From contig JBAQNN010000002.1 in the NCBI GenBank assembly GCA_049303835.1, positions 94,492 to 158,491 on the forward strand: a DNA stretch of 64,000 nt, read 5' to 3'. The number at the start of each line of letters is the position of its first letter. Position 1 is the stretch's first letter. The notes below the pieces were generated by a model. That model was not told the DNA's origin and ran no database searches. It saw only the letters and a program-made list of their open reading frames with translations. The DNA comes from Minisyncoccia bacterium (GTDB lineage: Bacteria; Patescibacteriota; Minisyncoccia; Phycocordibacterales; UBA9973). Positions 18,109-55,089 of this stretch are shown here, piece by piece. A program made the translations under genes and the position numbers.

Positions 18109-18588
18109 ATGCGAATTTTAGGAATAGATCCGGGATATGAAAGACTTGGGGTCGCTATATTAGAAAAAAATAAAAACGGTGATAAGGAAAAAGTACTTTT
18201 TTCCGAATGTTTTAAAACTTCTGTTAAATTAGAATTTGCGGAACGATTAAATTTAATTGGCGAAGAAGTCAGAATGATTATAAAAAAATTCAAGCCGGAA
18301 GTTCTTTCCGTAGAAACTTTATTTCTAAATACCAATCATAAAACAGTCATGCGGGTGGCCGAAGCCCGCGGAGTAATAATTTATGAAGCTTCTCGTGCTC
18401 ATCTTAAAATATTTGAAGCCTCTCCCCCGCAAATAAAAATAGCGACTACCGGTTATGGTAAATCAGACAAGGCACAAATAATTAAAATGGTAAAAATGCT
18501 CGTAAAAATGGACAATTCTAAAACCTCAGATGATGAGTTGGATGCTATTGCTATAGCCATCACCGCTTTCGCACATACAAAAATTTAG
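18109..18588 (+). CDS. ruvC: Holliday junction resolvase RuvC
   Basis: 159 aa, MRILGIDPGY..., catalytic D/E pattern, DELDAIAIA near the C-terminus. Confidence 0.9.
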   Translation: MRILGIDPGYERLGVAILEKNKNGDKEKVLFSECFKTSVKLEFAERLNLIGEEVRMIIKKFKPEVLSVETLFLNTNHKTVMRVAEARGVIIYEASRAHLKIFEASPPQIKIATTGYGKSDKAQIIKMVKMLVKMDNSKTSDDELDAIAIAITAFAHTKI

Positions 18589-18597
18589 TTATCCACA
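18589..18597 (+). promoter_or_regulatory. perfect DnaA box TTATCCACA (extended TAGTTATCCACA, TAG = ruvC stop)
   Basis: Read directly. Confidence 0.5.
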
Positions 18598-18711
18598 CGA
18601 TATATCTATTTGCTATTGCCAAGCGTTTTTTATTTTGTTACAAAGTAGGAAATTATTAGTAGGTCGCTTTCCCGCGAGAGCGGGGTAAAAATAAAATATT
18701 AAATTTTATAT

Positions 18712-18840
18712 ATGCACGACGAGGACGAAGAAATAGAAGAAGGAGGGTTTAAGGTGGGTGATGACGAAGAACTTGATTTACCTCCAGAAGGGTTAGACGA
18801 CTTTGGGTTGGATGAAGAAGACCCTGATAAAGACAGATAA
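18712..18840 (+). CDS. possible 42-aa highly acidic micro-protein
   Basis: Own translation: MHDEDEEIEEGGFKVGDDEELDLPPEGLDDFGLDEEDPDKDR. It is followed immediately by a strong terminator and is below the track size cutoff. Confidence 0.3.
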   Translation: MHDEDEEIEEGGFKVGDDEELDLPPEGLDDFGLDEEDPDKDR

Positions 18841-18845
18841 AAACT

Positions 18846-18871
18846 AAAAAACGCCCACTCGGGCGTTTTTT
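18846..18871. terminator. bidirectional rho-independent terminator
   Basis: A-run, ACGCCC (18851-18856) / GGGCGT (18861-18866), 4-nt loop, T-run. Abuts the tyrS stop. Confidence 0.75.
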
Positions 18872-20045
18872 AGTTTTGTGTAACTTTCACGAATCTTTTT
18901 TTGCCGATTTTAAGCGTTAAGTTTTCTGAAACTTTTAAATTTACATCTGTAATATTAGTATTATTGCCTAAATCATGGATGGCGTTTTCTAAAACAAGTC
19001 TGCGCCATTCCCCTTTTGAAGACAACACTTTGCTCTTTACTAAAACTTCACTCAACAATTCTCCCGCGCCGGCTTTTATCTCTTCCATTTCATCCGGAAT
19101 TTCTTTTTTCTGAAAAGTTTTTACAAAGTTTTCCTCGGCCTCTTTCGCTTTTTTCTCCCCATGATAGATTTTCACAATTTCAAAAGCCAGACGCATTTTT
19201 GCATCCCGTGGGTTTTCATTTTGAGGGATTTCTAAATCAGAAATATTTGTGCAAAGTTTAAAGTATTTAGGAATAAGCTCATCACGCAAAGCCATAATCT
19301 TACCAAACATATCATTTGGTTCATCGGTTATGTTTACGACATTTCCCCAAGAAGTGGACATTTTTCTTCCGTCCGTTCCCTCCAGCATTGAAACCGTCAA
19401 AATATCCTGTTCCGGCATCCCATAGTGTTTTTGAACTGTTCTACCGGCTTTCAAATTAAACAATTGATCAAAACCCCCTATTTCCACATCTGCTTTTACA
19501 ACAACACTATCATATCCTTGCATTAGCGGATACAAAAACTCACGCAGAGATATTTCTTCTTCTTTGTCAATTCTATCTTTGAAATTACGCCTATTGGACA
19601 TTTGTTGAACAGAAAAACTCTCAGCTAGTTCTGAGATTTCTTTAAATCCTAGTTTTCCCAACCATTTACTATTGTATTTAAATTCCGTTTTCTTTAAGTC
19701 TATAATCATGCCTAGTTGTTTGGCATAATTTTTCATATTTATTTTTATTTGTTTAGCTGTGAGCATCGGACGTTTTTCCAATTTATCTGATGGGTCTCCT
19801 ATCGTGGCCGTAAAATCTCCAACTATTAAAACGACCTTATGCCCCAGGTCTTGAAATTGTTTTAGTTTTTGCAATGGCACCGCTCTTCCTAGGTGAATTT
19901 TGGGTCCGGTTGGGTCAATACCTAGTTTTACCCGAAGAACTTTTCCTGAAAGAAGCTGTTTTTTGAGGTGTTCTTTTACAAAGACATCTTCCACTCCTCG
20001 GTTTAAAATTTCATCTATTTTTTTCTCATCCGTTATCACTTTCAT
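18870..20045 (-). CDS. tyrS: tyrosyl-tRNA synthetase
   Basis: 391 aa, GIDPTGPKIHLGRAV (HIGH-type), GDFTATIGDPS, KMSTS, C-terminal S4-like region. Confidence 0.85.
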   Translation of the reverse strand: MKVITDEKKIDEILNRGVEDVFVKEHLKKQLLSGKVLRVKLGIDPTGPKIHLGRAVPLQKLKQFQDLGHKVVLIVGDFTATIGDPSDKLEKRPMLTAKQIKINMKNYAKQLGMIIDLKKTEFKYNSKWLGKLGFKEISELAESFSVQQMSNRRNFKDRIDKEEEISLREFLYPLMQGYDSVVVKADVEIGGFDQLFNLKAGRTVQKHYGMPEQDILTVSMLEGTDGRKMSTSWGNVVNITDEPNDMFGKIMALRDELIPKYFKLCTNISDLEIPQNENPRDAKMRLAFEIVKIYHGEKKAKEAEENFVKTFQKKEIPDEMEEIKAGAGELLSEVLVKSKVLSSKGEWRRLVLENAIHDLGNNTNITDVNLKVSENLTLKIGKKRFVKVTQN

Positions 20046-20052
20046 AACTCGA

Positions 20053-20061
20053 ATAATACCA
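20053..20061 (-). promoter_or_regulatory. extended -10 (TGGTATTAT on minus strand) 7 nt upstream of tyrS ATG
   Basis: Read directly. Back-to-back with the PBP promoter in a 39-bp spacer. Confidence 0.4.
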
Positions 20062-20068
20062 CATTTTC

Positions 20069-20077
20069 TGCTATAAT
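20069..20077 (+). promoter_or_regulatory. extended -10 (TGCTATAAT) 7 nt upstream of PBP ATG
   Basis: Read directly. The same TTTTCTGCTATAAT string recurs at 9732-9745. Confidence 0.45.
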
Positions 20078-20084
20078 TCTATTA

Positions 20085-22607: not shown

Positions 22608-22610
22608 AAT

Positions 22611-23973: not shown

Positions 23974-24212
23974 ATATTTGTTTATATCTTATATAAATAA
24001 ATTATTAGTAATATTAGTGTTGTTAATAAGTGGATAATTATTTTTATATTTATTAAATATACTTATTTTTAATTTATAAACTGAACTTAAATCTAATAAC
24101 TTTTTGTCTTATGTTTATGAAAATATTTTTTATTTTTAATTTTTCTTTTTATTCGCGTTAATTAACAGATTTTGTCTGGTTTGTTATATTGTTTTTCCCT
24201 ACTTATAAACAG
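23974..24212. other. candidate oriC / DNA unwinding region (very AT-rich dnaA-dnaN spacer)
   Basis: 239-bp spacer, by eye >80% AT with A/T tracts. One near-consensus DnaA box at 24029-24037 (TTATCCACT on the minus strand). Confidence 0.5.
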
Positions 24213-25556: not shown

Positions 25557-25624
25557 TGTTTTTATCTTACACTATTTATAAAACAGGGGGTATATGTAAT
25601 ATCTTATTAACTATGTTGATAAGC

Positions 25625-25633
25625 TGTGGATAA
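25625..25633 (-). promoter_or_regulatory. perfect DnaA box (TGTGGATAA on + strand) in dnaA-rpmH spacer
   Basis: Read directly. Lies in the dnaA upstream region. Confidence 0.6.
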
Positions 25634-25710
25634 GTTTGTTGCCGGCATGATTTGTTTATCACACAAGACTTGGATTTGATAAAAACCGGATGATGTTATA
25701 TACTACCTGT

Positions 25711-27164: not shown

Positions 27165-27650
27165 ATGGATAAAAACGAGATACAAAAATTAATAACAGAA
27201 TTGATTGAAAAAACTACAGTGAAATTAAATGATGTTTCTGTGGTAGAAGACGGGCCCAAAAACATCTGGGTTGCAGTAGAGGTGAGTGAACCACACTTCT
27301 TTATTTCACACGACGGTGAAGGTTTGCAAGCCCTAAACCATATTGTTCATAGAATTATTGAAGCTAAAAACCCTTCCCCCGCACCTGGTTTAGGAGAAAA
27401 AGCAGGGCTGGGAATCCTGGTGGATGTAAATGGTTTTCAAAAAAAGCACGTGGAGAATGTCCGAGCCATAGCTCATATGATGTCTGAGAGAGCGAGATAT
27501 TTTAAATCAAACATAGAAGTTGATCCGATGTCAGCCTTTGAGCGTAGAATTGTACACGAATTTTTATCCGATGCGCCTGATCTCAAAACCGAATCCATGG
27601 GTATGGGGCGTGATCGCCGAGTAGTTATCAAATATATCGGCTCTATTTAA
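27165..27650 (+). CDS. jag: Jag/SpoIIIJ-associated RNA-binding protein (KH + R3H)
   Basis: 161 aa, C-terminal R3H (ERRIVHEFL), position after yidC. Confidence 0.75.
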   Translation: MDKNEIQKLITELIEKTTVKLNDVSVVEDGPKNIWVAVEVSEPHFFISHDGEGLQALNHIVHRIIEAKNPSPAPGLGEKAGLGILVDVNGFQKKHVENVRAIAHMMSERARYFKSNIEVDPMSAFERRIVHEFLSDAPDLKTESMGMGRDRRVVIKYIGSI

Positions 27651-29007
27651 GTTCCAATTCCCAAAGGAAAGAGTCTTTTTTGTTTACAAAAAATAGATAA
27701 TTTTCCTCTGTATCAAGCGCGAGTTTTATGCTATCTGTCTCCTCTCCTCCTTCCACAGTGGTTGGGTCTAAAAGAAGAGTCGCATTTCCGGTAGTTAAAT
27801 CTATTTTCCAGAATTGATCTCCGAAAGATACTTCTCCACGATACCAAATATCCGGATATCCCGCTCCGGTAATTACTTTAGGAACTCCACAGTAGATGAC
27901 ATCGCTCACACTTCCCCAGACACATTTTTCCGGTAAAGTCCTTACCCCAAGAACTTCTGATGTCTTTGTGTCTGTATGGTAGATACCGAGAGCTAGGTTG
28001 TTGTTTCCATAAAGAATAGATTTTCCATCTGGACTAGTGAGGGTGGTCAATCCATTTATATTGCCGAAAATTTGGTGCAAGTTTTTATTATTTATTGGGT
28101 CCACGCCATATACAAATCCGGGGACAGAAGCGGCAGGTTTTGTGGTTAAAGTCATGAGTTTGTTGTTTGGCCACTCGGGCAACCACTCGGTGAATGGTGA
28201 ATCAAAGATTTGAGATTTTTTGTTGGTGGTCAGGTTTAAAGTTGTACCCACAATATTTTCTCCGACCTCAAACAGATAAAGAATACTTCCTTTGTCTCCC
28301 GACAGGCTCACATCCCTTATGTCTTCTGGCAAGAATGTTCCAGTTATTTCATTTTCTCCTGTAGTGTCTCCCCCCAAGACTTCTTTTGGCAAATTACCGA
28401 CAAAAGTAATGATGATGTTTCCATCTTCTTTTAAATATCTCATTATCACAGACTCTCCTTTGTTGCCAAAGAATGCTTCATATACTTTAGGAATCATTGT
28501 TCCGGAAAACTTCCTTTCTTCTATTTTATCCGCGAAAGTCTGATAGATGTTTCCTGTAGCTCTATCCACATACCTTAGAGCCGACACGAATTCTGTCGCC
28601 GGTGGGGTTGGTTTTGTGGTGGTCGTTGTTTTTGGAGTTGTTTCTTCCGGGGTGGTGGTATTTTCAGCAGGAGGAGTTGTCGGCGCTACCACAGGAGGAA
28701 TTTCTACTAGTCTTTCTTTAGTATAAACAGTAAAACCAGCCACGGGCATACTGGAGACCTTTTTAAGTTTTACTTCTTCCTGCTCGGGTCCTGGCTCGTA
28801 ACCGGAGACATCAGTAGGAGTGTCTCCTTTGGGCGTCGTCGGTGATTTGCCTCCCGTTCCAAATGGATTGAATTGTGAGATAAAGTTTGTCCCCTCTCCT
28901 TCTTCTCCTAGTGTCCCCGTGCCTTGTTGTAAATATAAAAATCCAAACACTACCAGGATAGTGATGATCAGAATTATTATTAAAAGTATAAAATTTCTTT
29001 TTGACAT
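27643..29007 (-). CDS. membrane-anchored protein with Thr/Pro linker and PD40/TolB-like beta-propeller repeats (last gene of T4SS-like operon)
   Basis: 454 aa, N-terminal TM helix, TTPPAENTTTPEETTPKTTTTTKPTPP linker, SPDGKSILY-type repeat. Confidence 0.5.
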   Translation of the reverse strand: MSKRNFILLIIILIITILVVFGFLYLQQGTGTLGEEGEGTNFISQFNPFGTGGKSPTTPKGDTPTDVSGYEPGPEQEEVKLKKVSSMPVAGFTVYTKERLVEIPPVVAPTTPPAENTTTPEETTPKTTTTTKPTPPATEFVSALRYVDRATGNIYQTFADKIEERKFSGTMIPKVYEAFFGNKGESVIMRYLKEDGNIIITFVGNLPKEVLGGDTTGENEITGTFLPEDIRDVSLSGDKGSILYLFEVGENIVGTTLNLTTNKKSQIFDSPFTEWLPEWPNNKLMTLTTKPAASVPGFVYGVDPINNKNLHQIFGNINGLTTLTSPDGKSILYGNNNLALGIYHTDTKTSEVLGVRTLPEKCVWGSVSDVIYCGVPKVITGAGYPDIWYRGEVSFGDQFWKIDLTTGNATLLLDPTTVEGGEETDSIKLALDTEENYLFFVNKKDSFLWELELK

Positions 29008-29016
29008 ATGTTTTTA

Positions 29017-29994
29017 TTATCTGCCATCCACTGACCAATGCCAAGGTTCGGATGGTAAGTTAGAAAGACCGTATTTACCGGCATTTGCTTGTAGCCACAC
29101 AAAGCACTTATTATCGCGGGTTTGAATAAATTTTCCATCACACTGTAGATCAAATGCCTTGCCATGGTTGTGATTTGATTGACCTGGAAGAGCTGTGGGT
29201 GGATTACATTTTGCACTTGCGTTTTCGTAGTCTCCATTACAATATTTTATTCTTAATTGTTTCTGTTGTTCTGTAGATCTATATCCCCCACCTGTTATGT
29301 TTAATCCGGCACTTTTTGATGCAACTAGCATGGCGTTAATGTTTGAAACAATATCTTTACATGCAAACATGCTAATTTGGGTTTTTACCACTCCGGCGCT
29401 ACATCCAGATGTAACTCCTGGGGGGTTCCCAGAATCGCTTGCTATTGCGTCTGCTAGTGTTACCTCTACTGTTATTTTTTCTAAACTACTCAGATCAGTC
29501 TTTAGAATATCTGGATTTATTTGGTTTAAGATTGTCCAAGCGCCCAAAGCGAGCACAAGTCCAAAAATAGCGCCAGTGATTCTATGTTTACCGTTTTCTT
29601 TATTAGATATCAGTTCACTAGTCATATACTCCAAACCACCCACCACTATCATTATCACAGCCAACACAGCGCATATACCGATGAAAATACGTATCATTAT
29701 GTTCAAATACTCACCTATTTTGGAATTTTCTCCCTCTGCGCTTGTCGGGTCAAAGGTTTTTAGTTGTCCATCTTCACACCCAGGAGTACCTTTTTCACAA
29801 GGCAGAGGGGCTAAAAAATTATATTTCAAATCATTTTCTTGTGTAGCATTTACGCAGGACACCCCATCAGGAGCAAGTATTTTATCTCCTGTGCATTCAA
29901 CTGCCAAAACAGAGTTGGTGGAGACAAAAAAACTAAAGATTAAAAAAACCAATTGTAATGAGACTATTATCTTTTTAAGCATATCTTTTTTCAT
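29017..29994 (-). CDS. fusion protein: VirB2/TrbC-like T4SS pilin domain + C-terminal M15 (VanY-like) peptidoglycan peptidase
   Basis: 325 aa: signal peptide, YNFLAPLPC motif, two hydrophobic helices (IRIFIGICAVLAVIMIVVGG, ITGAIFGLVLALGAWTILNQI), then GYRSTEQQ...SNHNHGKAFDL...EPWHWS. Confidence 0.6.
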   Translation of the reverse strand: MKKDMLKKIIVSLQLVFLIFSFFVSTNSVLAVECTGDKILAPDGVSCVNATQENDLKYNFLAPLPCEKGTPGCEDGQLKTFDPTSAEGENSKIGEYLNIMIRIFIGICAVLAVIMIVVGGLEYMTSELISNKENGKHRITGAIFGLVLALGAWTILNQINPDILKTDLSSLEKITVEVTLADAIASDSGNPPGVTSGCSAGVVKTQISMFACKDIVSNINAMLVASKSAGLNITGGGYRSTEQQKQLRIKYCNGDYENASAKCNPPTALPGQSNHNHGKAFDLQCDGKFIQTRDNKCFVWLQANAGKYGLSNLPSEPWHWSVDGR

Positions 29995-30980
29995 TAAAAT
30001 TCTACTCTTATTTCTTTACTTGTACCACCGAAAATTTTAAAGGTATCCTCAATCTCCAATTTTATTATAGATGTTCCCGACTGGCCCGACTGGACTGCGA
30101 GGGGCATAATATTCTTTTTATAAGCTGGCACAGCGACTTGATAATCGTTGATAAACCAATTAAATACGAGAGTCGGTATTCGTATTTCTTTAGGTGAGAT
30201 AAAATAAGGTACAGCCTCTATAATTTCATTTCCTTGTATCTTGTGTCCATCAGACAGAATCGTCTCCCAGACAGTTCCCGTAGTCGGGTTCTTTCTGTAA
30301 AATAGAATTTTTGGTTCTACTGTCCCCACAGTAATATTTGCAGCAGAAGAATATTTTTGATCTGTGGTGGAGGCCGTCACTCCTATAGTGCTAGTATCTT
30401 CCAGGTAATCATCTACATAGCTAAAAGAGTTTTTGCCATAACCGGAGGCATCTTGTTTGTTTGTATAGTCTCTCTTCCAAGCATAAACGAGGTTTTTAGA
30501 ATTTACTGTTTGGGTTCCATTTCTAATTTCTGGCATGGCCACTATTTTTATCTCGCTTCCGGTCGTCGGCATAGCCTTGCCACGATAAAAAGGTGGCACA
30601 TGAGAATCGTTTGCTTGCCAAAGGAGAGTCATAATGGATGGGCGGATCGTTATTCTCTTGTCTATAGTTCCGTCCGGTAGAGAGATAGAAGCTACGATGC
30701 TGGTCTCTTTTCCTGCCTCCGGAGCTGTAAGAGAAAAAGACTTTTTACCGATTCCAGACAAAACATTTTTCCCGTCCACAGACCATACGATGAGGACACT
30801 ATCCAGATTGCTGACATAGCTATTCAAGTTGATATTTACATTTTCATTTGGGCCAGGATTTTCCGGAGAGATGTCCACCAAGATACTACTTGAAGAAACA
30901 GCGGTTACTTCGGAAGGGAGAAAAATCCCTGTCAATAAAAGTGTTACTATTAAATATGAAAGTAAAAATCTTAATTGCAT
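29994..30980 (-). CDS. secreted protein of unknown function (T4SS-like operon)
   Basis: 328 aa, N-terminal signal/anchor. Its stop overlaps the start of the next gene by 1 nt. No motif recognised. Confidence 0.6.
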   Translation of the reverse strand: MQLRFLLSYLIVTLLLTGIFLPSEVTAVSSSSILVDISPENPGPNENVNINLNSYVSNLDSVLIVWSVDGKNVLSGIGKKSFSLTAPEAGKETSIVASISLPDGTIDKRITIRPSIMTLLWQANDSHVPPFYRGKAMPTTGSEIKIVAMPEIRNGTQTVNSKNLVYAWKRDYTNKQDASGYGKNSFSYVDDYLEDTSTIGVTASTTDQKYSSAANITVGTVEPKILFYRKNPTTGTVWETILSDGHKIQGNEIIEAVPYFISPKEIRIPTLVFNWFINDYQVAVPAYKKNIMPLAVQSGQSGTSIIKLEIEDTFKIFGGTSKEIRVEF

Positions 30981-31012
30981 AACTCAGCCTAATTATATCA
31001 TATCTGCTTTAC

Positions 31013-31047
31013 AACTTTATAACTTTCAACTTTTGAACTTTATAACT
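31013..31047. repeat. five degenerate 7-8-nt direct repeats AACTTTNN (AAAGTT in mRNA sense)
   Basis: acAACTTTatAACTTTcAACTTTtgAACTTTatAACTa directly after the virB4 stop. Followed in mRNA sense by TGATATAAT. Confidence 0.6.
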
Positions 31048-32893
31048 ATTGTTTACCCTCAGTTTCCGCTCTCTCCTGCTCCTCCTTGGCTTTTCTGTTT
31101 GAAAGTATTTGGGAAGGGTCGGAAGTGATTATCTGGTCTTCAGTATAAGAAGAAATGACTTTTATGGCTACATGCTTTAGGCCGGCAAAGAATATTCCCT
31201 CCCCGAGGCCTGACTCCAAAAGCAGATATTTTTCTTCATCCGTCAGGTTGAAGGTTTTTTGTAAAATATCTATAGTGGTCGGTGATTGTTTAAGGAGAAG
31301 TTGAATAGAAGAGTTTGTAATGATGGGGACACCATAAGGAGATTTCATAAAGTCGGCGGCGTCTTGGGTGATGGTGGAAAGACCGAGATAATATTTTCTA
31401 CCTCTTTTGGCGATAGAGTATAAGAATGAAGCGGTGTCTTCAGATTTCATCATCCACCAAGCCTCATCTACTACCAAGAGGCGCTTTTTCAAATTTTTTC
31501 GTACGGTATTCCAGATATAATGCATGATGATATACATGGCGACGGGTTTTAACTCGTCTTCCATGTCGCGGACGGAAAATACTACGAATTTTTTATTGAT
31601 ATCCACATTGGACGGTCTGTTTAAGAATGTCGCCCAAGAACCCCTCGTATATTTGGCTAGTCTGGTGACGATTGAATCACTTCCATCCATCCCTCCGAGC
31701 ACCATTTCAAAATCTGACAGAAGAGGAGGTTCAATGTTTGAGAAATCAGATTCAGGAGTGATATCTTTCATCGCATAAGTTTCGGAAATAGCTCGGTCTA
31801 CCATTGAATCTTCTTCAGGGGTGAGTCCGCCTAGCATCAATCTGAAAAGCCCTACCAAGTTTATGATATTTGAACGGAGGACATCTTCGGCTGTTTCGCC
31901 TTCGTGAGGAATAGGTAAATCAAAAGGATTGATGTGGTGATCGGAAGAAAGAGAAATATTGAAATATCTTCCACCGACCGCCTCTGACAAGAACTCGTAT
32001 TCCCTTTCCGGATCTATCACTATGACATCAACATCAAACATTAAAGATCTCAAAATTTCTAGCTTAGTGGCATACGATTTTCCGGAGCCGGACTTGGCAA
32101 AGGTCACGGAGTTGTAATTCTCTAGTGAAAATCTATCAAAGATGACTAGGCTGGAATTGTGCCTGTTGATGCCGTAAAGTATTCCTTTGTTGGAAGTCAG
32201 GTCAAAAGAAATAAATGGGAATACACTACTAAGTGGTTCAGAATTCAACTTCTGATGAATACCAAGTATGTCTGTATTTATGGGTATGACGCTCTTAAAA
32301 CCGTCTTCTTGTTGGAAGAGAGCCGGTTTGATATAGATGAGTTTTGATTCAAGGATTGATTTTATCTCATTTTCTATTTTGAAAAGTTCCAACTCGTTGT
32401 CGGCATAAATGGTGATGTAAATACCCACATCAAACATTTTTTCTTGCGCTTGGATCAGATTATTGCGCAGGCCCTCTAGGTCTTGGTAGGCAGTATCAAG
32501 CATAGGGTCGCGCACCATACCCTTACTCTCTCGTACACTTATCTGACTCTGCACCTCGGCGACTTTTTTCTGAAATTGTCTCAAGACCAGAGAAGTGTCT
32601 ATCGGATGAATAAAAATTGAAATATCAAAAACTTTATCCAGATTGATTATAGGAGAGAACCAATTGTCTGTCAGAAATCTAGGATAGGAAATGATGAAAA
32701 AAGTACGAGCGATTTTATCTCCCAAGCTTATGGATTTAGACGATATTTTCAGAGCTGAAGGAGCGATGACATCTTGGAGCTCCAGGGTGGCGGATTGGTA
32801 GATTTCTTCCGGCATCACTGCCAAGACGGAAGCTCTCACTTCCTTTTCCTCCCCTCCTTTTTGTCCACCTAATAATTTTTTTAAAAAGTCCAT
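31046..32893 (-). CDS. virB4: VirB4/TraE-type T4SS ATPase, C-terminal 3/4 (split gene, part 2)
   Basis: 615 aa, Walker A AKSGSGKSY, Walker B LLVVDEAWWMM, ITQDAADF. The N-terminus matches the DxIAPS...yP region that sits at about aa 215 of single-chain Gram-positive VirB4 homologues. Confidence 0.85.
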   Translation of the reverse strand: MDFLKKLLGGQKGGEEKEVRASVLAVMPEEIYQSATLELQDVIAPSALKISSKSISLGDKIARTFFIISYPRFLTDNWFSPIINLDKVFDISIFIHPIDTSLVLRQFQKKVAEVQSQISVRESKGMVRDPMLDTAYQDLEGLRNNLIQAQEKMFDVGIYITIYADNELELFKIENEIKSILESKLIYIKPALFQQEDGFKSVIPINTDILGIHQKLNSEPLSSVFPFISFDLTSNKGILYGINRHNSSLVIFDRFSLENYNSVTFAKSGSGKSYATKLEILRSLMFDVDVIVIDPEREYEFLSEAVGGRYFNISLSSDHHINPFDLPIPHEGETAEDVLRSNIINLVGLFRLMLGGLTPEEDSMVDRAISETYAMKDITPESDFSNIEPPLLSDFEMVLGGMDGSDSIVTRLAKYTRGSWATFLNRPSNVDINKKFVVFSVRDMEDELKPVAMYIIMHYIWNTVRKNLKKRLLVVDEAWWMMKSEDTASFLYSIAKRGRKYYLGLSTITQDAADFMKSPYGVPIITNSSIQLLLKQSPTTIDILQKTFNLTDEEKYLLLESGLGEGIFFAGLKHVAIKVISSYTEDQIITSDPSQILSNRKAKEEQERAETEGKQ

Positions 32894-32900
32894 AATTGTA

Positions 32901-32975
32901 TTTAGGCTTTAGCTTTTAGGCTCTAGGCTCTAGCTTTTGAGTTTGCTAATGCCTAAGGCCTAGTTGCCTAGCGCC
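32901..32975. repeat. heptad hairpin element copy A, (NNTAGGC)n - loop - (GCCTANN)n
   Basis: TTTAGGC TTTAGC TTTTAGGC TCTAGGC TCTAGC / ttttgagttt / GCTAAT GCCTAAG GCCTAGT TGCCTAGC GCC. It fills the gap between the two virB4 parts. Confidence 0.8.
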
Positions 32976-33614
32976 CTACTCTATTTTAATCTTACCCTCC
33001 AATTCTCCGGGGTTGAAAACTTTATAAAATACTTCCACTACTTCTTCGGTATTCAGCTGGGCCGAATTTATTCCACAACGAGACAATCCTTGCTGGATGA
33101 CAGCTACCCTCTCTTCTAGTTGAGATCTCTTCTCTTCAAAATCTATCTGTTTTGCGGCTCGCACTTCTTCTGAATTCTTTTTGGAAAATAGCTTTCCCAA
33201 TATCCCGGAATCTGATTTTAAAGTTGTACGTGAATATGGTATTACAATAAAGAAGTTTTTTGTCATGATACTGACAGATTCAGTAAAGCTTCTTATAAAC
33301 TCTATATATTCCCTAGTTTGCAACTTGATCAACGGCTCATTTTGCACTTTTACTCTGTTTTCTAAAAGGAGTAAATAAGGTCTGATGTCCAGCCTTCTGG
33401 ATTGGACTGATATCTGTACCGGAAAATCCAAGGTGTTTAAAAAATTTTGAAATTGAAGAATGGTCGCATGTTGTTCATCGGAAGATTTCAAGGATAGGTT
33501 GACCGAGTTTGCGAGTACGATGGCTCGGAGCTCACCTTCTTTTAGCACGATGATGCCATCGCGTATCTCTTTGATTGGTATAAATTCTTGTGTTGCTTTT
33601 GCTTTTAATGCCAT
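32976..33614 (-). CDS. virB4: VirB4 N-terminal domain (split gene, part 1)
   Basis: 212 aa, ATQEFIPIKEIRDGIIVL...NLSLKSSDEQHATILQFQNFLNTLDFPVQI resembles the N-terminus of Tn916 Orf16/PrgJ-type VirB4 (recalled from memory). Confidence 0.65.
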   Translation of the reverse strand: MALKAKATQEFIPIKEIRDGIIVLKEGELRAIVLANSVNLSLKSSDEQHATILQFQNFLNTLDFPVQISVQSRRLDIRPYLLLLENRVKVQNEPLIKLQTREYIEFIRSFTESVSIMTKNFFIVIPYSRTTLKSDSGILGKLFSKKNSEEVRAAKQIDFEEKRSQLEERVAVIQQGLSRCGINSAQLNTEEVVEVFYKVFNPGELEGKIKIE

Positions 33615-33623
33615 AAATTTTTT

Positions 33624-33700
33624 CTAGGGCTTTAGGCTCTAGGCGTTAGGCTTTAGCTTTTGTTTCGCTAGAGCCTAGTGCCTAAGGCCTAGCTGCCTGC
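33624..33700. repeat. heptad hairpin element copy B
   Basis: CTAGGGC TTTAGGC TCTAGGC GTTAGGC TTTAGC / ttttgtttc / GCTAGA GCCTAGT GCCTAAG GCCTAGC TGCCTGC. The last 12 nt supply the end of the prgI-like ORF. Confidence 0.8.
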
Positions 33701-34129
33701 ATTTTTCTTTTTACTCAAATCAAGCACGTCCAAGCTCCAGGCCAAATCTCGCAACCTACTTCCATCCAATTTTGAACTGACATTTGGCAGTACTTCATTT
33801 TTATTTTCATCCATGTTTGTAGTTTGCGATTTATTATTTGCTACCCTACCGGTCTTCTTCTTCCAAATATAAAGTTTGTTTTGAGAAAAATATTTAAACC
33901 CTGCTTCAATCATGTTTATAAAAGGCTTATTGTTTGGTTTATAGAAAGTAAGAGCTAAAGAAAACCCGGCGATAATCAAAATAGGGATGGCGCTAAAGAC
34001 GAGCCCTAATAATTTATAAAGCACAAAACACAAACCTGCTCCGCCGGCCAAATAAGCAAACTCCCTAAAAGTAAAAGGGCCGAATATTTTATCTTCTATT
34101 TCTAAAAATTGTGGAACCTTGAATTGCAT
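33689..34129 (-). CDS. PrgI-family (VirB3-like) two-TM T4SS protein
   Basis: MQFKVPQFLEIEDKIFGPFTFREFAYL then two TM helices. I prefer the ATG at 34129 over the track GTG at 34141. Confidence 0.65.
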   Translation of the reverse strand: MQFKVPQFLEIEDKIFGPFTFREFAYLAGGAGLCFVLYKLLGLVFSAIPILIIAGFSLALTFYKPNNKPFINMIEAGFKYFSQNKLYIWKKKTGRVANNKSQTTNMDENKNEVLPNVSSKLDGSRLRDLAWSLDVLDLSKKKNAGS

Positions 34130-34140
34130 AAATACAGGCA

Positions 34141-34542
34141 CTAGGCTTTAGGCGCTAGGCTCTAGCTGAGAAATTAGTTTATTCAACATTTTCATAATTT
34201 CTTCTAATAAAGAACCCACTTTATTATAATCTAATTTTGCAGTTTTGGGTAATTTTTTAGATATTATTAGCTGAGTTTCTAGCTCCGCACCAGAAGCAAA
34301 GGCAATAAGTAAGAATCTTTTGAATTCTGGAATTCCTCCTCGCATTTTCCCTTCTGCAATATTAGAAGGTATGGATACTGCCGCCCTACGAATTTGTGAG
34401 GTTAAACCATAAATTTCTTCCTTCGAAAATTTGTCTGTGAGTTCATAAACTGCTATTACAAGCTCTATCGATTTTTGCCACACGACTAAATCTCTATATG
34501 TTTTCATGTGTTTTTTACTAGCGCCTAATGCCTAGAGCCTAG
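34141..34542 (-). mobile_element. heptad hairpin element copy C carrying a four-helix-bundle (IVS-type) gene in place of the loop
   Basis: Left arm 34141-34166: CTAGGC TTTAGGC GCTAGGC TCTAGC. Right arm 34518-34542: CTAGC GCCTAAT GCCTAGA GCCTAG. By hand pairing the arms form a ~26-bp helix around the ORF. Confidence 0.55.
34148..34507 (-). CDS. four-helix-bundle protein (23S rRNA intervening-sequence protein family)
   Basis: 119 aa, MKTYRDLVVWQKSIELVIAVYELT...SIPSNIAEG...AELETQLIIS, the signature pattern of this family. The last codons (LEPSA) are encoded by the repeat arm. Confidence 0.85.
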   Translation of the reverse strand: MKTYRDLVVWQKSIELVIAVYELTDKFSKEEIYGLTSQIRRAAVSIPSNIAEGKMRGGIPEFKRFLLIAFASGAELETQLIISKKLPKTAKLDYNKVGSLLEEIMKMLNKLISQLEPSA

Positions 34543-48669: not shown

Positions 48670-48779
48670 ATGTCTTCATATTATATGACTTTTAATTTTT
48701 TTAGACCAATTTTTACTCAAAAAGCTACCAAAATTATTCAGTTTAGTAGCTTTTTTGTCAAATTTTAACCCCCAAATAG

Positions 48780-48788
48780 TTATCCACA
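48780..48788 (+). promoter_or_regulatory. perfect DnaA box (extended TAGTTATCCACA)
   Basis: Read directly. Intergenic. Confidence 0.5.
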
Positions 48789-49043
48789 GACCCCCCTTGT
48801 CGGATTGACTTTTGACCCTTTTTGAGCTATTCTATATCTCGTAGTCCTGGAGAGAAGTTGGGCGCGAACTGGCTGTAAGACAGAAGAGATTGTAACCATC
48901 GTGAGAACCTTTGTTTACAGAACCTATTGGTCGTCCTGTAATTCTACCCTTATTCTAAAAGGCTAGAAAAGGAAATCTCGCGAAATTTAGTTTGTTTTAT
49001 AAAACCTACAAAAAAAACAGTTAGTAAAATATTAAGGTCTATC

Positions 49044-50159
49044 TTGACGTCCTCCCTGCTATTTGGGGCCCTTTTTGTGCCTACTCGGGGGGTAGAGGCT
49101 GGAATCCTTTCCTCCCTCTCTTCTATGTTTGTGGGGGATCCAGTGTATGCACAATCTGATCCAAATATAATAAAGCCACCCCAGCCAGGCAGTAATTCTC
49201 AGAATATTGCTCTCTTGCAAGCCAACGTCTCTTCTGCCTCTGTTTTGGAAGATAAAAGTATTAATAAAGATGAGGTTTTAGATATGATAACAATAGACAC
49301 CACAAACAGTATTATTTCTGATAATGCTCTTTTGCCATCTCTGGCCGGCTTTGTCGGGGCTGATGGCATGGATGCAAATACAGATGTTTCTTTTGAAGAT
49401 ATCAGTGTTTATGTAGTAAGAAAGGGTGATTCCTTGTCCCAAATAGCTGATATGTTTGAAGTTTCTGTAAATACCATACTTTGGGCCAATGATATGAAAA
49501 AAGGCGATAAATTAGTAGAGGGAGACACACTTTTTATATTACCCGTCTCTGGACTAAAACATGTTGTAACTAAAGGACAAACCCTGAAGAGTATCGCCCA
49601 GAAATACAATGCGGATATTGGGGATATAGTCAGTTTCAATGGAATTACAGAGGATACTAAATTGGTAATTGGAGATGAATTGATCATTCCAGGCGGAGAA
49701 ATGTCTGTGGATGGGCCAGTCAAAACGACCACCGCGAAAGGTGTTGTGGCTACTGCCAAGACTTCACTGAAGAGTATTGCAGGGTACTTTATAAATCCGG
49801 TTCTAGGGGCCATCAAAACCCAAGGACTACACGGCAAAAATGCTGTTGACCTGGCTGCTCCGATAGGTACGCCGATACGTGCGGCAGCTTCCGGGACAGT
49901 TCTTCTTGCTCGTATGGGATGGAATGGAGCTTACGGAAACATGGTCATCATTCAACACCCAAATGGTACTAAAACTCTTTACAGTCATTTATCCAAGATT
50001 GCAAGCACGACAGGACAAAGTGTTTCTCAGGGAGACACTATCGGCTATGTCGGGAATTCAGGAAGAGTCAGAGCGGCCAAAGGAGGAAATGGTGCGCACT
50101 TGCACTTTGAAGTTTATAACGCCAAAAATCCCGGGGCTGATCGCTCCTGGAAGCAATAA
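49044..50159 (+). CDS. secreted LysM-LysM-M23 peptidoglycan endopeptidase (TTG start)
   Basis: 371 aa, two LysM repeats (YVVRKGDSLSQIA..., HVVTKGQTLKSIA...). M23 motifs HGKNAVDLAAPIGTPI and GAHLHFEV. Confidence 0.85.
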   Translation: MTSSLLFGALFVPTRGVEAGILSSLSSMFVGDPVYAQSDPNIIKPPQPGSNSQNIALLQANVSSASVLEDKSINKDEVLDMITIDTTNSIISDNALLPSLAGFVGADGMDANTDVSFEDISVYVVRKGDSLSQIADMFEVSVNTILWANDMKKGDKLVEGDTLFILPVSGLKHVVTKGQTLKSIAQKYNADIGDIVSFNGITEDTKLVIGDELIIPGGEMSVDGPVKTTTAKGVVATAKTSLKSIAGYFINPVLGAIKTQGLHGKNAVDLAAPIGTPIRAAASGTVLLARMGWNGAYGNMVIIQHPNGTKTLYSHLSKIASTTGQSVSQGDTIGYVGNSGRVRAAKGGNGAHLHFEVYNAKNPGADRSWKQ

Positions 50160-50968: not shown

Positions 50969-51002
50969 GGGGCGGGGTGTCGATTTCTCGACTCCCCGCC
51001 CC
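50969..51002 (-). terminator. GC-rich rho-independent terminator of the small GC-rich ORF
   Basis: GGGGCGGGGtGTCGA-tttc-TCGACtCCCCGCCCC. In minus-strand sense it is followed by a U-rich tract (CTTTCTAATTTCTCTTAATTTTTTTT). Confidence 0.7.
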
Positions 51003-51026
51003 GATGGGTGGCTGTGGCGTGTCAGA

Positions 51027-51188: not shown

Positions 51189-51210
51189 GTTTTTCTCCTT
51201 TCCGAATTTG

Positions 51211-51238
51211 ATACTACAATAAAGACGCCTTTTGTCAA
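51211..51238 (-). promoter_or_regulatory. sigma70-like promoter (TTGACA, 16 nt, TAGTAT on minus strand) of the GC-rich small ORF
   Basis: Read from the reverse complement: ccTTGACAaaaggcgtctttattgTAGTATc. Confidence 0.45.
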
Positions 51239-51252
51239 GGATAGATTTTTTG

Positions 51253-51323
51253 TGCGGGATGGGAGAATCGAACTCCCAACCTCAGTTTGGAAAACTGACG
51301 TTTTACCATTAAACTAATCCCGC
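51253..51323 (-). tRNA. tRNA-Gly (anticodon UCC), no encoded CCA
   Basis: Hand-folded: acceptor GCGGGAT/ATCCCGC, anticodon arm TCAGT-TTTCCAA-ACTGA, T arm GGGAG-TTCGATT-CTCCC. Confidence 0.9.
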
Positions 51324-51377
51324 ATCTGTCTTCTAACTATATCTTTTATTTTATATTTTTTCAACCAAACTTCAGTA

Positions 51378-52307: not shown

Positions 52308-52336
52308 AAAATTGTGCGTATTGATCCTCTCTTCGT

Positions 52337-52407
52337 TCGGGCCGCTGGGAATTGAACCCAGTCTAAATGCTCCCAAAGCACTTGTACTACCGGTATACTA
52401 CGGCCCG
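52337..52407 (-). tRNA. tRNA-Pro (anticodon UGG), no encoded CCA
   Basis: Hand-folded: acceptor CGGGCCG/CGGCCCG (C1-G72), anticodon arm AGTGC-TTTGGGA-GCATT, T arm CTGGG-TTCAATT-CCCAG. Confidence 0.9.
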
Positions 52408-52433
52408 GATTACTTAAAAACTAAATGAGTATA

Positions 52434-52862
52434 TCATAAAATGATGTCGCTGACCACCTTTACTCTGGCTTTTTTATTTTTTAAATCCAGATATACAACC
52501 AGGAGATCCACTTGCCACTCTTTACCTTCGGAGATTTTTTCGGACAAAAGATATGTTTGAATTGTCCGTGACATTCGTTTTAGTTTCCAGGGATGCATAT
52601 TATCTTCTGGTCTGTAGTTGTTGTCTGTTGTTACATGTGAAACATTGTCTAGCGTTACACGGGAAACACTCTTTACTTCTATAAAATACAGCCTGTTATT
52701 TTTTTCAGCTATTATGTCTATCTCCCCCCATTTTTTAGTATAATTTCTTTCCAATATTGAAAAACCGTGTTTCACGAGAAACTTTTCAGCTATGTTTTCC
52801 CCAATTTCTCCTATCTTTTGGGTTTCTGATGTAAATTTTTTAGGCATTTTAATAAGTTTCAT
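52434..52862 (-). CDS. YraN-family (UPF0102) endonuclease with an internal 2 x 24-nt tandem repeat
   Basis: GEIGENIAEKFLVKHGFSILERNY...GEIDIIA...YFIEVKS. Start ambiguous (GTG 52871, ATG 52862 or ATG 52847). Confidence 0.75.
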   Translation of the reverse strand: MKLIKMPKKFTSETQKIGEIGENIAEKFLVKHGFSILERNYTKKWGEIDIIAEKNNRLYFIEVKSVSRVTLDNVSHVTTDNNYRPEDNMHPWKLKRMSRTIQTYLLSEKISEGKEWQVDLLVVYLDLKNKKARVKVVSDIIL

Positions 52863-53003
52863 GTGTAACACGTTTCACGTGAAACACTTTACTAAATTTT
52901 AGTGTCTTTTATCATAAAACCCTTACTTTTCAACGTATTTTTGATAAAAATGATCCCAAAAGACAGTTTTGAAATGTGTCCTTTATAAACATTACTAACA
53001 TAG

Positions 53004-53012
53004 TTATCCACA
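53004..53012 (+). promoter_or_regulatory. perfect DnaA box (extended TAGTTATCCACA)
   Basis: Read directly. Intergenic between yraN and tRNA-Gly. Confidence 0.5.
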
Positions 53013-53075
53013 TTTCGCAGTCTTTTTGAGTAATATCCTTTATCTGATGAGGTTTTTGATAAAGGACAAAATTTG

Positions 53076-53146
53076 TGCGGCCAGAGAGAATCGAACTCTC
53101 GTCTCATCCTTGGCAAGGACGTGTTCTACCACTAAACCATGACCGC
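53076..53146 (-). tRNA. tRNA-Gly (anticodon GCC), no encoded CCA
   Basis: Hand-folded: acceptor GCGGTCA/TGGCCGC, anticodon arm CGTCC-TTGCCAA-GGATG, T arm GAGAG-TTCGATT-CTCTC. Confidence 0.9.
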
Positions 53147-53249
53147 TCTTTGTTTGTGAACAAGAACCAGGGATTAAAAATACTGTTTGATTATAATATT
53201 TTATTGATACTAAAGCAATTACAAAAATAGCTTGAAAAATAAGCACTAT

Positions 53250-53278
53250 TTGCCAATATTTTCTGAATAGTGTAAAAT
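53250..53278 (+). promoter_or_regulatory. sigma70-like promoter (TTGCCA, 17 nt, TAAAAT) upstream of tRNA-Arg
   Basis: Read directly. About 25 nt upstream of the mature tRNA 5' end. Confidence 0.4.
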
Positions 53279-53302
53279 AACAGTGTATTATTAGATAATT
53301 CT

Positions 53303-53374
53303 GCACCCGTAGTGAAATGGATATCACAACAGTCTTCGGAACTGTCGTTGGGGGTTCGAGTCCCTCCGGGTGCA
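53303..53374 (+). tRNA. tRNA-Arg (anticodon UCG), no encoded CCA
   Basis: Hand-folded: acceptor GCACCCG/CGGGTGC, anticodon arm ACAGT-CTTCGGA-ACTGT, T arm GGGGG-TTCGAGT-CCCTC. Confidence 0.9.
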
Positions 53375-53440
53375 CAAAGTGCGGGGTACTTTGTGCAAGG
53401 CGGAGCGCGACGGCGCGAGCCAGGGTCGTGCAAATTTTCA
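53371..53440. repeat. GC-rich structured segment between tRNA-Arg and cca, sharing a 16-nt exact match with the rsmA insertion
   Basis: Hairpin TGCACAAAGT-gcggggt-ACTTTGTGCA uses the last 4 nt of the tRNA. 53404-53419 AGCGCGACGGCGCGAG equals the reverse complement of 42089-42104. Confidence 0.65.
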
Positions 53441-53450
53441 GTAGAAAATT

Positions 53451-55079
53451 ATGCCTGACCACAATAATGTTATGGAACAAGATCTAAAAAATTTAATACA
53501 AAAAATACCCAAGGAGGTTTCACATGTAACAAGTACACTAGAAGAAGCTGGTTTTGAAGTGTACCTAGTCGGCGGCTGTGTTCGCGATTTACTGATGAGC
53601 AGAGAGCCCAAAGATTGGGATGTCACTACCAATGCCAAACCGGATCAGATTATTGGTCTTTTTGAGAAAACTATTTACGAAAACACCTTTGGAACCGTAG
53701 GAGTAGTTGTTCCACGCCTGTCCGCCAAAGCCTTGGCGTCGGAGGATGAAACAACAGAAAAAGAGGTTTCACATGAAACTATGATTATTGAGGTCACTCC
53801 ATACAGAATTGAGGCAAAATATAGTGATTTTAGGCATCCAGATGAAGTAAAATTTAGTCAAAAACTAGAAGATGATCTAAAAAGACGCGATTTTGGTGTT
53901 AACGCGATGGCCCTAAGTCCTAAAGGACATCTGGTTGATTTGTTTGATGGTCTAAAGGACATCAAAGATAAGATACTTAAGGCTGTCGGAAACCCAGATG
54001 ACCGATTTGAAGAGGATGCTCTCAGAATGTTGAGAGCTGTCCGTTTTGCTTGTCAACTTGATTTTTCTGTGTCGTATGAAACAACGGAAAGTATTTTGAA
54101 AAATGCGGAATTAATAAAAAAAATTTCTGCCGAAAGAATTCGTGATGAGTTTGTAAAAATGGTTATGTCGCCGAATTCTGCGAGTGGAATGGTGATGTTG
54201 CAAAAATTTAATTTGTTAAAAAATATAATTCCGGAATTAGAAGAGGGGATAGGGTGCGAACAATCGGGCGAACACATATACGATGTTTGGAATCATTTAC
54301 TGGCCGCCCTTCAGCATGCTTCAGACAAGAATTGGCCTTTAGAAATAAGGCTTTCTGCACTTTTTCATGATATCGGGAAACCTCGTTCTAGACGAAGCAT
54401 AACTTCACCTGATGCTTTTGCTCAGTCGCTCGGTCCCTCGTTTCACTCAGCCACTCCTTCACAAAAGCATACAGGTTCAGTTTCTAAATCTAAGAAAAAA
54501 TTTACTTTTTATGGTCATGAAGTTGTCGGCGCACGGATGACAAAAAAAATAATGGAACGGTTAAAATTTTCAAACAAAGAAATTGAAGCTGTGGAAAAAC
54601 TCGTACGCAACCACATGTTCTTCTCGGACACGGAATTGATCACCCTCTCGGCGGTGCGAAGAATCATCACCAAGGTTGGGAAAGAAAACATCTGGTCTCT
54701 AATGGACGTCCGTGAGTGTGACAGGGTCGGGATGAAGAAAAAAGAAGCGCCATATCGCCTGCGGAAGTACTTTGCGATGATAGAAGAGGCACTGAGGGAC
54801 CCAATATCTGTAAGCCAATTAAAGATAAACGGCGAATTTATGCAAAAAGAGCTCGGAATTGTTCCTGGTCCCAGAATGGGGTGGATTTTGAGTGCTCTTC
54901 TAGAGGAAGTCTTAGACGCTCCGGAGAAAAATACTGTGGAACATCTCTCGGAATTAGTGAAATCTCTGAATATGCTAGGAGATGCTGAACTCAAAACTCT
55001 TGGTCTTCGTGGAAAAGAAAAAAAAGAAGAGCTTGAAGAAGAAGAAGTTGCCAAACTTCATAAAAAACACGGAGTCTAA
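53451..55079 (+). CDS. cca: CCA-adding tRNA nucleotidyltransferase with HD domain
   Basis: 542 aa, GGCVRDLL, DWDVTT, RRDFGVNAMA, HDIGKP...YGHE. Carries two apparent insertions (aa ~90-115 and ~312-345). Confidence 0.85.
   Translation: MPDHNNVMEQDLKNLIQKIPKEVSHVTSTLEEAGFEVYLVGGCVRDLLMSREPKDWDVTTNAKPDQIIGLFEKTIYENTFGTVGVVVPRLSAKALASEDETTEKEVSHETMIIEVTPYRIEAKYSDFRHPDEVKFSQKLEDDLKRRDFGVNAMALSPKGHLVDLFDGLKDIKDKILKAVGNPDDRFEEDALRMLRAVRFACQLDFSVSYETTESILKNAELIKKISAERIRDEFVKMVMSPNSASGMVMLQKFNLLKNIIPELEEGIGCEQSGEHIYDVWNHLLAALQHASDKNWPLEIRLSALFHDIGKPRSRRSITSPDAFAQSLGPSFHSATPSQKHTGSVSKSKKKFTFYGHEVVGARMTKKIMERLKFSNKEIEAVEKLVRNHMFFSDTELITLSAVRRIITKVGKENIWSLMDVRECDRVGMKKKEAPYRLRKYFAMIEEALRDPISVSQLKINGEFMQKELGIVPGPRMGWILSALLEEVLDAPEKNTVEHLSELVKSLNMLGDAELKTLGLRGKEKKEELEEEEVAKLHKKHGV
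54407..54476. repeat. hairpin-forming segment within the insertion between HDIGKP and YGHE of cca
   Basis: ACCTG.ATGCTTTTG (54407-54420) pairs with CAAAAGCAT.CAGGT (54462-54476): 14 bp with a one-nucleotide bulge, 41-nt GC-richer loop. Confidence 0.5.
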
Positions 55080-55080
55080 G

Positions 55081-55089
55081 TTATCCACA
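55081..55089 (+). promoter_or_regulatory. perfect DnaA box (TAAGTTATCCACA, TAA = cca stop)
   Basis: Read directly. Confidence 0.5.

Follow-up and report, generated by a model that had tools for sequence, protein, structure and literature searches.

That DnaA acts as a transcription factor, and that DnaA boxes occur outside oriC, is already well known. The DnaA regulons of E. coli, B. subtilis and Caulobacter include autoregulation of dnaA itself, nrdAB, sda and others, and the loci datA, DARS and DBC (the latter in B. subtilis) are defined by clusters of at least three boxes in a set arrangement. Within E. coli oriC, the boxes R1 and R4 are strong, high-affinity sites. To our knowledge, nothing is experimentally known about the coupling of replication to gene expression in Patescibacteria (the candidate phyla radiation, CPR), and a literature search found no published DnaA-box or ParB/parS work in this group. 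Here we describe a 64,000-nucleotide stretch of the genome of a Minisyncoccia bacterium (contig JBAQNN010000002.1, positions 94,492 to 158,491; hereafter ‘the window’), in which the DnaA-box 9-mer TTATCCACA recurs as part of a longer 12-mer, WAGTTATCCACA, at four places, numbered sites 1 to 4. We consider it likely that these boxes belong to a small DnaA regulon together with a DnaA/parS-like module, which would serve transcription control rather than the start of replication.

The locus shares with the described regulons consensus 9-mer boxes next to promoters outside oriC, a dnaA promoter that itself carries boxes, and one putative target, a peptidase, tied to cell division or the cell wall. 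Most regulon cases have multiple or overlapping boxes, whereas here a single box preceded by a purine and a G (RG) is held upstream of the -35 element at rigid spacings that differ by one helical turn. As with datA and DARS1-2 of E. coli and the box clusters of B. subtilis, the boxes lie in the part of the chromosome near the origin, outside oriC; unlike those loci (at least three boxes in a defined arrangement, with accessory IHF/Fis sites), they come singly or as a pair and are tied to promoters. In its extended form the sequence is the same as at E. coli R4 (context AGTTATCCACA) and R1 (context GTTATCCACA), both of which are found at 100% identity adjoining mioC in E. coli chromosomes. R1 and R4 are parts of the origin, whereas the flank-extended form described here lies at promoters and at the parS-like module and not at the boxes linked to dnaA.

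A DnaA box extended by two conserved bases

The 9-mer occurs five times in the window, on the plus strand at 18589, 48780, 53004 and 55081 and on the minus strand at 25625, against 0.60 expected. The 12-mer occurs four times, each on the plus strand, against 0.03 expected. The expectations come from dinucleotide-preserving shuffles, and in none of 100 shuffles were five or more 9-mers, or the observed number of 12-mers, reached. A near-perfect box, TTATCCACT, lies at 24029 in minus orientation. Every 12-mer is intergenic, and two adjoin stop codons: the TAG of the ruvC open reading frame (ORF; 18109-18588) is the first triplet of the site-1 12-mer, and the second base of the cca stop TAA (ORF 53451-55079) is where the site-4 12-mer starts. 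An earlier reading of these letters alone (the sequence-only reading) had given the same counts, coordinates, orientations, intergenic placement and stop-codon contacts, all of which are borne out by the window scan and the ORF coordinates.

Comparative material was gathered with two protein queries. The Cca protein gave 80 loci (L001-L080) in species-representative genomes at 69-83% amino-acid identity, nearly all of them metagenome-assembled genomes of Candidatus Nomurabacteria, Paceibacterota or Patescibacteria, and DnaA gave 80 metagenome loci (L081-L160) at 84-95% identity. The two sets make up 160 loci and 2.2 Mb of related DNA, with a piece of about 20 kb per genome; three contigs common to both place dnaA and cca 23-31 kb apart, like the window. 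The window is Nomurabacteria-like, of an uncultivated lineage, and keeps synteny with both sets of 80 loci. The conserved gene order, with strands in brackets, is uvrD-like (-), o775 (-), site 2, lysM-M23 (+), zip (-), yraN (-), site 3, tRNA-Gly (-), tRNA-Arg (+) and cca (+).

Sites 1, 2 and 3 are positionally conserved across the 160 loci, and site 4 is lineage-specific, so that the conservation in relatives asked of the motif by the sequence-only reading is found at three sites of the four. In the 1.17 Mb around cca there are 115 perfect boxes, 65 of which are homologs of site 3 and 27 of site 2; the 23 outside conserved sites compare with about 11 expected, roughly twice background. Position -2 is a purine in 34/34 loci at site 1, 38/41 at site 2 and 63/63 at site 3, and position -1 is G in 27/34, 36/41 and 58/63, respectively. 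The box upstream of dnaA has G at -1 in just 2 of 46 loci. The flank extension is thus real, class-specific and essentially RG. Position -3 (T/A), which the earlier reading had counted among the shared 5' bases, varies among relatives at sites 1 and 2; because only -2 and -1 are kept at the non-origin sites, the conserved unit is the 11-mer RGTTATCCACA.

All four sites match the 9-mer perfectly, and with it the relaxed consensus TTWTNCACA; the variants seen at orthologous sites are TTTTCCACA, TTATCCCCA and TTATACACA. The DnaA encoded in the window aligns end to end with the DnaA of PDB entry 8btg (E=2.6e-106), and its domain IV (Bac_DnaA_C, 3.3e-25) keeps the R-Q..MYL and GGKDHTTVIH motifs, the helix-turn-helix being intact in the alignment. 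RGTTATCCACA is most likely a flank-extended DnaA box of the high-affinity type, putatively read by domain IV of the organism’s own DnaA.

Phased boxes upstream of two conserved promoters

At site 1, the box is perfect in 33 of 34 distinct related loci, the remaining one having TTTTCCACA. In these loci the box is followed by CTATTGCCAA, which contains the -35 TTGCCA, then by 17 nt, and then by TTTTGnTACAAAGTAGG with a TG-extended -10, so that relatives share the pattern TTGCCA-17-TGnTACAAA (Table 1). Box and -35 are separated by 7 nt in 25 loci and by 18 nt in the other 9, among them the window, with no intermediates. After a short 5' untranslated region (UTR) comes a micro-ORF of 38-54 aa in the relatives, with the motifs ..GF[KR]M..DEPL..DFGLDEEDPD. 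The family pattern, M[S]YDEDEE.E.GF[KR]M..DEPL..DFGLDEEDPD[KR]D[R] or ..DPDSRYH, is found downstream of ruvC in the dnaA set of loci. These micro-proteins are extremely acidic, each has its own promoter and terminator, and the protein matches no Pfam or NCBIfam family. Promoter, micro-ORF and terminator together indicate a self-contained transcription unit with the DnaA box at its upstream edge.

A known riboswitch or small RNA near sites 1 and 2 was considered and dropped, as Rfam searches in E-value mode gave only weak matches there, far under gathering scores. Short GC-rich hairpins (e.g. CCTGCCnnnnGGCAGG and CCGCCnnnGGCGG) stand at variable positions in conserved AT-rich non-coding DNA: in the micro-ORF 5' UTRs of L091, L126, L131, L134, L139 and L143, at 18675-18695 of the window, and in the site-3 module of L005, L010 and L049. 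Either miniature palindromic insertions or stem-loops with a stabilising role may account for them.

At site 2, among 51 loci with the lysM gene, 27 boxes are perfect, 17 have one mismatch and five have two (49/51 with at most two), the imperfect ones being nearly always TTTTCCACA or TTATCCCCA. The box stands 6 nt from the lysM -35 in 14 loci and 14-16 nt in 27. The lysM promoter is kept nearly base for base in relatives (ATTGACTTTTGaCCcTTTTTGaGCTAtyCT), and TTTGTCAAATTTT is kept upstream of the box, on the side of a divergent promoter. The best NCBIfam matches of the peptidase are DipM-type division endopeptidases, below cut-off.

Between promoter and peptidase gene lies a conserved leader of about 200 nt, with homologs in about 40 of the 80 cca loci. 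It contains UAGuucuGaAnAGaaGua, GAcaGUAAcCaUCGugAGAAcc, GGUCGUcCUG and aaaggaAauCUcgcGauA; RNAalifold predicts a long-range pairing of CAUCGUGAG with CUCGCGAU, and no Rfam family matches the leader at E<=1. We regard it as a candidate cis-regulatory RNA, riboswitch-like, of the cell-wall hydrolase gene. An inverted repeat, GGTGTGGGGG-TTATCCACACC, with two facing CCACA half-sites, includes the box in L015, L028, L030, L039, L155 and L157 (sites 1 and 2), and may reflect either a dimer site or an additional weak box in divergent orientation.

Site 4 lies about 26 nt before a weak -35-like region of the promoter of o181, a gene for a 181-aa membrane protein, with the TG-extended -10 TAGTAT. Elsewhere, o181 homologs are preceded by the same promoter, with its TG-extended -10, but by no box. 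The gap of about 26 nt would extend a 6/16/26 series, if only weakly, as a single case.

The position of the box relative to the core promoter is therefore fixed across species at site 1 (34 distinct loci) and site 2 (41), and is not fixed at site 4, where the box is unconserved, or at site 3. In the mechanism that we propose, a single box pointing at its gene would be held just upstream of a sigma-70-type -35 (sites 1, 2 and probably 4), at distances that step by one helical turn: 6-7 or 14-18 bp, and about 26 bp at site 4. At about -46, -56 or -66, bound DnaA would keep to one face of the helix, from where it could contact RNA polymerase. Two spacing classes one turn apart, at two unrelated promoters and with variable filler, argue for a protein that needs a particular face toward the polymerase. 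Because of this face-of-helix constraint, we slightly favour DnaA as an activator, or some other direct contact with RNA polymerase, over simple occlusion. As a transcription factor, DnaA would tie three genes to the state of replication initiation: those for the acidic micro-protein and for the LysM-M23 (DipM/NlpD-like) peptidase, and the divergent neighbour of the peptidase gene.

The sequence-only reading had listed DnaA among the possible regulators of the downstream genes. This idea gains from the conserved, phased distances at the acidic micro-ORF and the LysM-M23 gene. It is weak for the 181-aa membrane protein, because the box is unconserved in relatives, and it falls for tRNA-Gly, which is no downstream target because it lies convergently on the opposite strand, with the box downstream of the tRNA.

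Table 1 Features of the window discussed in the text, with positions counted from its first nucleotide.
Feature	Position	Strand	Sequence, basis or remark
Site 1, extended box	18586..18597	+	TAGTTATCCACA; TAG within is the ruvC stop; RG-TTATCCACA in 33/34 related loci
Site-1 promoter	-35 18616-18621; -10 18639-18644	+	TTGCCA, 17-nt spacer, TG-extended TACAAA; by conservation
Acidic micro-ORF, 42 aa	18712..18840	+	MHDEDEEIEEGGFKVGDDEELDLPPEGLDDFGLDEEDPDKDR; frame and motifs kept in 34 relatives
Hairpin terminator between micro-ORF and convergent tyrS	18840..18877		17-pair stem, then T run
dnaA-dnaN spacer element	23974..24037	-	TTATCCAC-TTATTAACA, CTA ATA TTA CTA ATA, AT tract to dnaN
dnaA	24213..25556	-	Pfam match
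dnaA-upstream box array	25602..25633	-	TTATCCACA-gc-TTATCAACA-tag-TTAATAAGA; about 76 nt before dnaA start; without RG flank
Divergent promoter	48733..48761	-	TTGACA-17-AATAAT; consensus scan, 11/12 match; -35 18 nt from box
Site 2, extended box	48777..48788	+	Between two divergent promoters
lysM promoter	48805..48833	+	TTGACT-17-TATTCT; consensus scan; begins 16 nt past box
Leader, about 200 nt, before peptidase gene	48840..49043	+	Conserved in relatives
LysM-LysM-M23 peptidase (DipM/NlpD/EnvC-like)	49044..50159	+	Pfam Peptidase_M23, LysM
parS-like copy in yraN	52630-52643		
Two adjoining parS-like palindromes	52856..52885		GTTTCATGTGTAAC, GTTTCACGTGAAAC, starting at 52856 and 52872; consensus match
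Composite module	52903..53068		Between yraN and tRNA-Gly; four TAAA(A/G)GACA copies
TAAA(A/G)GACA, reverse complement	52903-52911, 52977-52985		
TAAA(A/G)GACA, as written	52958-52965, 53060-53068		
Site 3, box 1	52983..52991	+	TTATAAACA; same orientation as box 2, start 21 nt before it
Site 3, box 2 of tandem pair	53001..53012	+	Downstream of tRNA-Gly, past a weak hairpin and T-rich run on the minus strand
parS-like copies in cca	53517-53530, 53766-53779		
Site 4	55078..55089	+	AAGTTATCCACA; right after cca stop

The site 3 module and the position of the origin

Site 3 is the second, strong box of a tandem pair within a composite module. About 200 bp surrounding it are kept nearly base for base in relatives, and box 2 itself (TGTGGATAA) is invariant in all 57 aligned loci. 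Box 1 varies, but only among DnaA-box-like forms, some relatives having TTATCCACA (L033, L058) or TTATACACA (L015, L041, L053, L057, L070); where box 1 is a better match than in the window, its start lies 20 nt before that of box 2. The module also holds four copies of TAAA(A/G)GACA, nearly invariant over the 57 genomes, one of which (52977-52985) overlaps box 1. As an inverted pair, AARGACA-N8-14-TGTCYTT, this 9-mer occurs 44 times in the site-3 module and twice elsewhere in the 2.2 Mb; it is presumably the candidate site of a DNA-binding protein.

Five parS-like palindromes (GTTNCAYRTGNAAC) lie within 1.15 kb around the module. Palindromes of the 16-bp form tGTTtCAcGTGAAAca are thus present in several origin-proximal copies, the best being TGTTTCACGTGAAACg; next to yraN stand TGTTTCACGTGAAAC and a second, degenerate copy. 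The canonical chromosomal parS consensus, as quoted in PMC4368675, is tGTTtCAcGTGAAAAa/g, and TGTTTCACGTGAAAC agrees with it. Among the relatives, parS-like sites are confined to the surroundings of the site-3 module, at -1000, -500, 0 and +250 nt from the cca start, and none occur in the 80 dnaA loci. The parS reading is by sequence only, because a weak tblastn test turned up no ParB gene in the window or in the roughly 20-kb pieces of the 160 loci.

An attenuator or other structured RNA at site 3, suggested by the long-range complementarity TGTCCTTTAT...ATAAAGGACA, was rejected. RNAalifold gave no consensus pairs for the 57 site-3 sequences and Rfam returned only tRNAs at the site, and we treat the module as DNA-level sites because it shows no conserved RNA structure. 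Two promoters were also considered. No sigma-70 promoter directly follows site 3, the spacing being unfit, and a yraN promoter within the module (TTGTAA-16-TAAAAG) is doubtful because three relatives have GC hairpins, inserted as 20-25 nt, inside the would-be spacer.

It appears more likely that DnaA at site 3 would act as an architectural or regulatory partner of the centromere-like region or of the yraN promoter than as a classic promoter-proximal regulator. DnaA binding at the Caulobacter centromere was reportedly described by Mera, Kalogeraki and Shapiro (PNAS 2014, cited in PMC6667618). The Caulobacter centromere, as reported, resembles site 3 in having DnaA boxes in the parS region, apart from the origin. 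Site 3 differs in that no ParB was found nearby and in that its boxes form a tandem pair accompanied by an extra repeated 9-mer.

A canonical-looking origin takes in both sides of dnaA, at 23974-24212 and 25557-25640, with rnpA, yidC and jag as neighbours on one side and dnaN on the other. The array upstream of dnaA has three boxes in an 11-12-nt register, the third of which can also be read as TTAATAAG, and in many relatives it follows the -10-like GTATATAACA. AT content is 84% in the dnaA-dnaN spacer and reaches 97.5% over 40 bp of it, and at its end nearly all relatives examined have TTATCCAC-TTATCAACA, 2-3 nt, CTA ATA TTA TTA ATA followed by an AT tract. As reportedly set out by Richardson et al. 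in 2016, the basal unwinding system consists of a DnaA-box pair, DnaA-trios and an AT-rich tract. The spacer fits this layout, with adjoining boxes, a trio-like repeat and an AT tract. Site 3 shares with it only the same-orientation box pair, lacking trios and an extreme AT tract (its intergenic region is 73% AT), and sites 1, 2 and 4 have a single box each.

Strand composition points elsewhere. We regressed GC skew at 4-fold sites on position and gene strand, using bins near dnaA and cca in L001-L160, and obtained a coding-strand term of -0.079 +/- 0.006. Over the stretch that starts 12 kb past dnaN and ends at yraN, the position term lies between -0.11 and +0.04 and is negative in 12 of 13 bins; these bins cross dnaA and a 28-kb segment (window ~22.8-53.4 kb) that contains type IV secretion system (T4SS) genes. 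To the right of where cca starts it jumps, in about 80 genomes, to between +0.12 and +0.16, whatever the gene strand. The only sign change of this replication-type skew is at site 3/cca, with none at dnaA. The raw GC3 skew, which likewise takes a sharp, strand-independent step up at cca, had first suggested a ‘neutral’ dnaA-cca segment, a view that the 4-fold-site regression refined to weakly negative. The raw cumulative GC skew has its minimum at ~48-52 kb in the window, where gene orientation switches too.

The skew evidence and the motif evidence at dnaA-dnaN disagree, and we offer no reconciliation. The description of the boxes as far from the origin, made by the sequence-only reading, becomes uncertain for sites 2-4, which lie 0-4 kb from the only sign change, even though an unwinding-type element is present at dnaA-dnaN. 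Were chromosome replication to start at the site-3 module, as its true origin or as an additional one, the boxes of sites 2 and 4 would be flanking it, and the element at dnaA-dnaN would be a vestige, a regulatory site or an alternative origin. The E. coli oriC lies distant from dnaA, so that there is precedent for such an arrangement. The jump in skew exactly at cca, the slightly negative bins to its left, the cumulative minimum and the orientation switch all speak for it, as do the invariant box 2, the 20-21 bp register of two helical turns and the 9-mer that overlaps box 1 like regulator sites at other origins. Yet the module has only two boxes and no DnaA-trio-like repeat past box 2, its AT content is unexceptional beside that of the widely kept spacer, a weak hairpin and a tRNA gene occupy the side to which the boxes point, and the skew left of site 3 is about one-third as strong as that to the right. 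On balance we judge this reading unlikely. The narrower claim, that the module is a DnaA-dependent initiation site about 27 kb from dnaA, acting alone or alongside dnaA-dnaN, seems to us rather improbable as well, and initiation at dnaA-dnaN only is the probable arrangement.

A T4SS-like cluster at 27643-34141 of the window, with a pilin/VanY fusion, a VirB4/TraG-like ATPase and PrgI, adjoins rnpA-yidC-jag and dnaA. It agrees with PMC12102498, which places T4SS genes near dnaA in Paceibacteria. Among these genes, at 34148-34507, is an ORF that matches PF05635 (6e-36), the family of the ‘23S rRNA-intervening sequence protein’; any rRNA gene of the window lies far away.

Weighing the regulon against other readings

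Several observations count against a DnaA regulon. The RG flank is missing from the boxes at dnaA, which may point to a second reader or to a composite site. The generic sigma-70 scan does not call the site-1 promoter, which is backed by conservation alone, and it misses it because the -10 (TACAAA) ends in A and not T. The same scan calls no promoter at site 4, where the box is not conserved and only L072 among the relatives has a similar perfect box after cca. Site 3 has no -35 following it and lies downstream of a convergent tRNA, so that the transcription-factor model does not cover it; the skew sign change coincides with this very site, hinting at a replication role there, and tblastn with ParA and ParB queries gave no match in the window or in the roughly 20-kb pieces of the 160 loci.

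The boxes might instead serve DnaA titration or control of its nucleotide state, buffering or recharging DnaA as do datA, DARS and the B. subtilis DBC. Boxes of the high-affinity type near the origin region would suit such a role, any strong box titrates some DnaA, and site 3, with two boxes in a conserved AT-rich neighbourhood, could take a bending protein. Sites 1, 2 and 4 are single boxes, however; titration gives no role to the strict one-turn phasing to the -35, and perfect boxes outside the conserved sites show just the twofold excess given above. In a scan allowing one mismatch, none of the four sites has a cluster of at least three boxes, site 3 having two. Because the defining cluster is absent, titration-type functions fail at the four sites and are very unlikely; the datA/DARS-like role raised in the sequence-only reading is unsupported.

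Another DNA-binding protein might read RGTTATCCACA at the non-origin sites, the likeness to a DnaA box being a partial overlap. The RG flank, specific to sites 1-3 and missing from the dnaA-proximal boxes, would fit such a protein, and some site-2 copies form an inverted repeat (GGTGTGGgggTTATCCACACC) that fits a dimeric factor. Against this, only a minority of copies take the inverted-repeat form, E. coli R4 has the same flank, and all nine core positions are those of the universal DnaA box, with the variants TTTTCCACA and TTATACACA still within TTWTNCACA. Since DnaA accounts for the whole 9-mer as well as for the variants tolerated in it, we hold a different reader to be quite improbable. 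That the 12-mer might be the conserved end of a small element, mobile or repeated, as also raised earlier, or a chance recurrence, has nothing but the shared 12-mer itself in its favour and is to be rejected, because nothing past the 11-12-mer is common to the flanks of the four copies and the copies are orthologous, fixed in position across about 100 genomes, with counts that the shuffles never reached.

We thus return to a small DnaA regulon with a DnaA/parS-like module as the likely reading. New here are the lineage, the clean design of a phased single box with a class-specific flank, the target genes, and the association with parS-like sites at a skew inflection. At site 3, DnaA boxes and parS-like sites are joined in one module at the exact flip of strand composition. 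Should initiation occur at this site after all, it would explain the lone skew sign change and the near-zero skew of the 28-kb segment, and would make these genomes ones with a dnaA-distal or dual origin. As a transcriptional system, the sites would constitute a mini-regulon in which a division-type cell-wall peptidase and an acidic micro-protein may each be governed by one flank-extended DnaA box, set whole helical turns from the -35.

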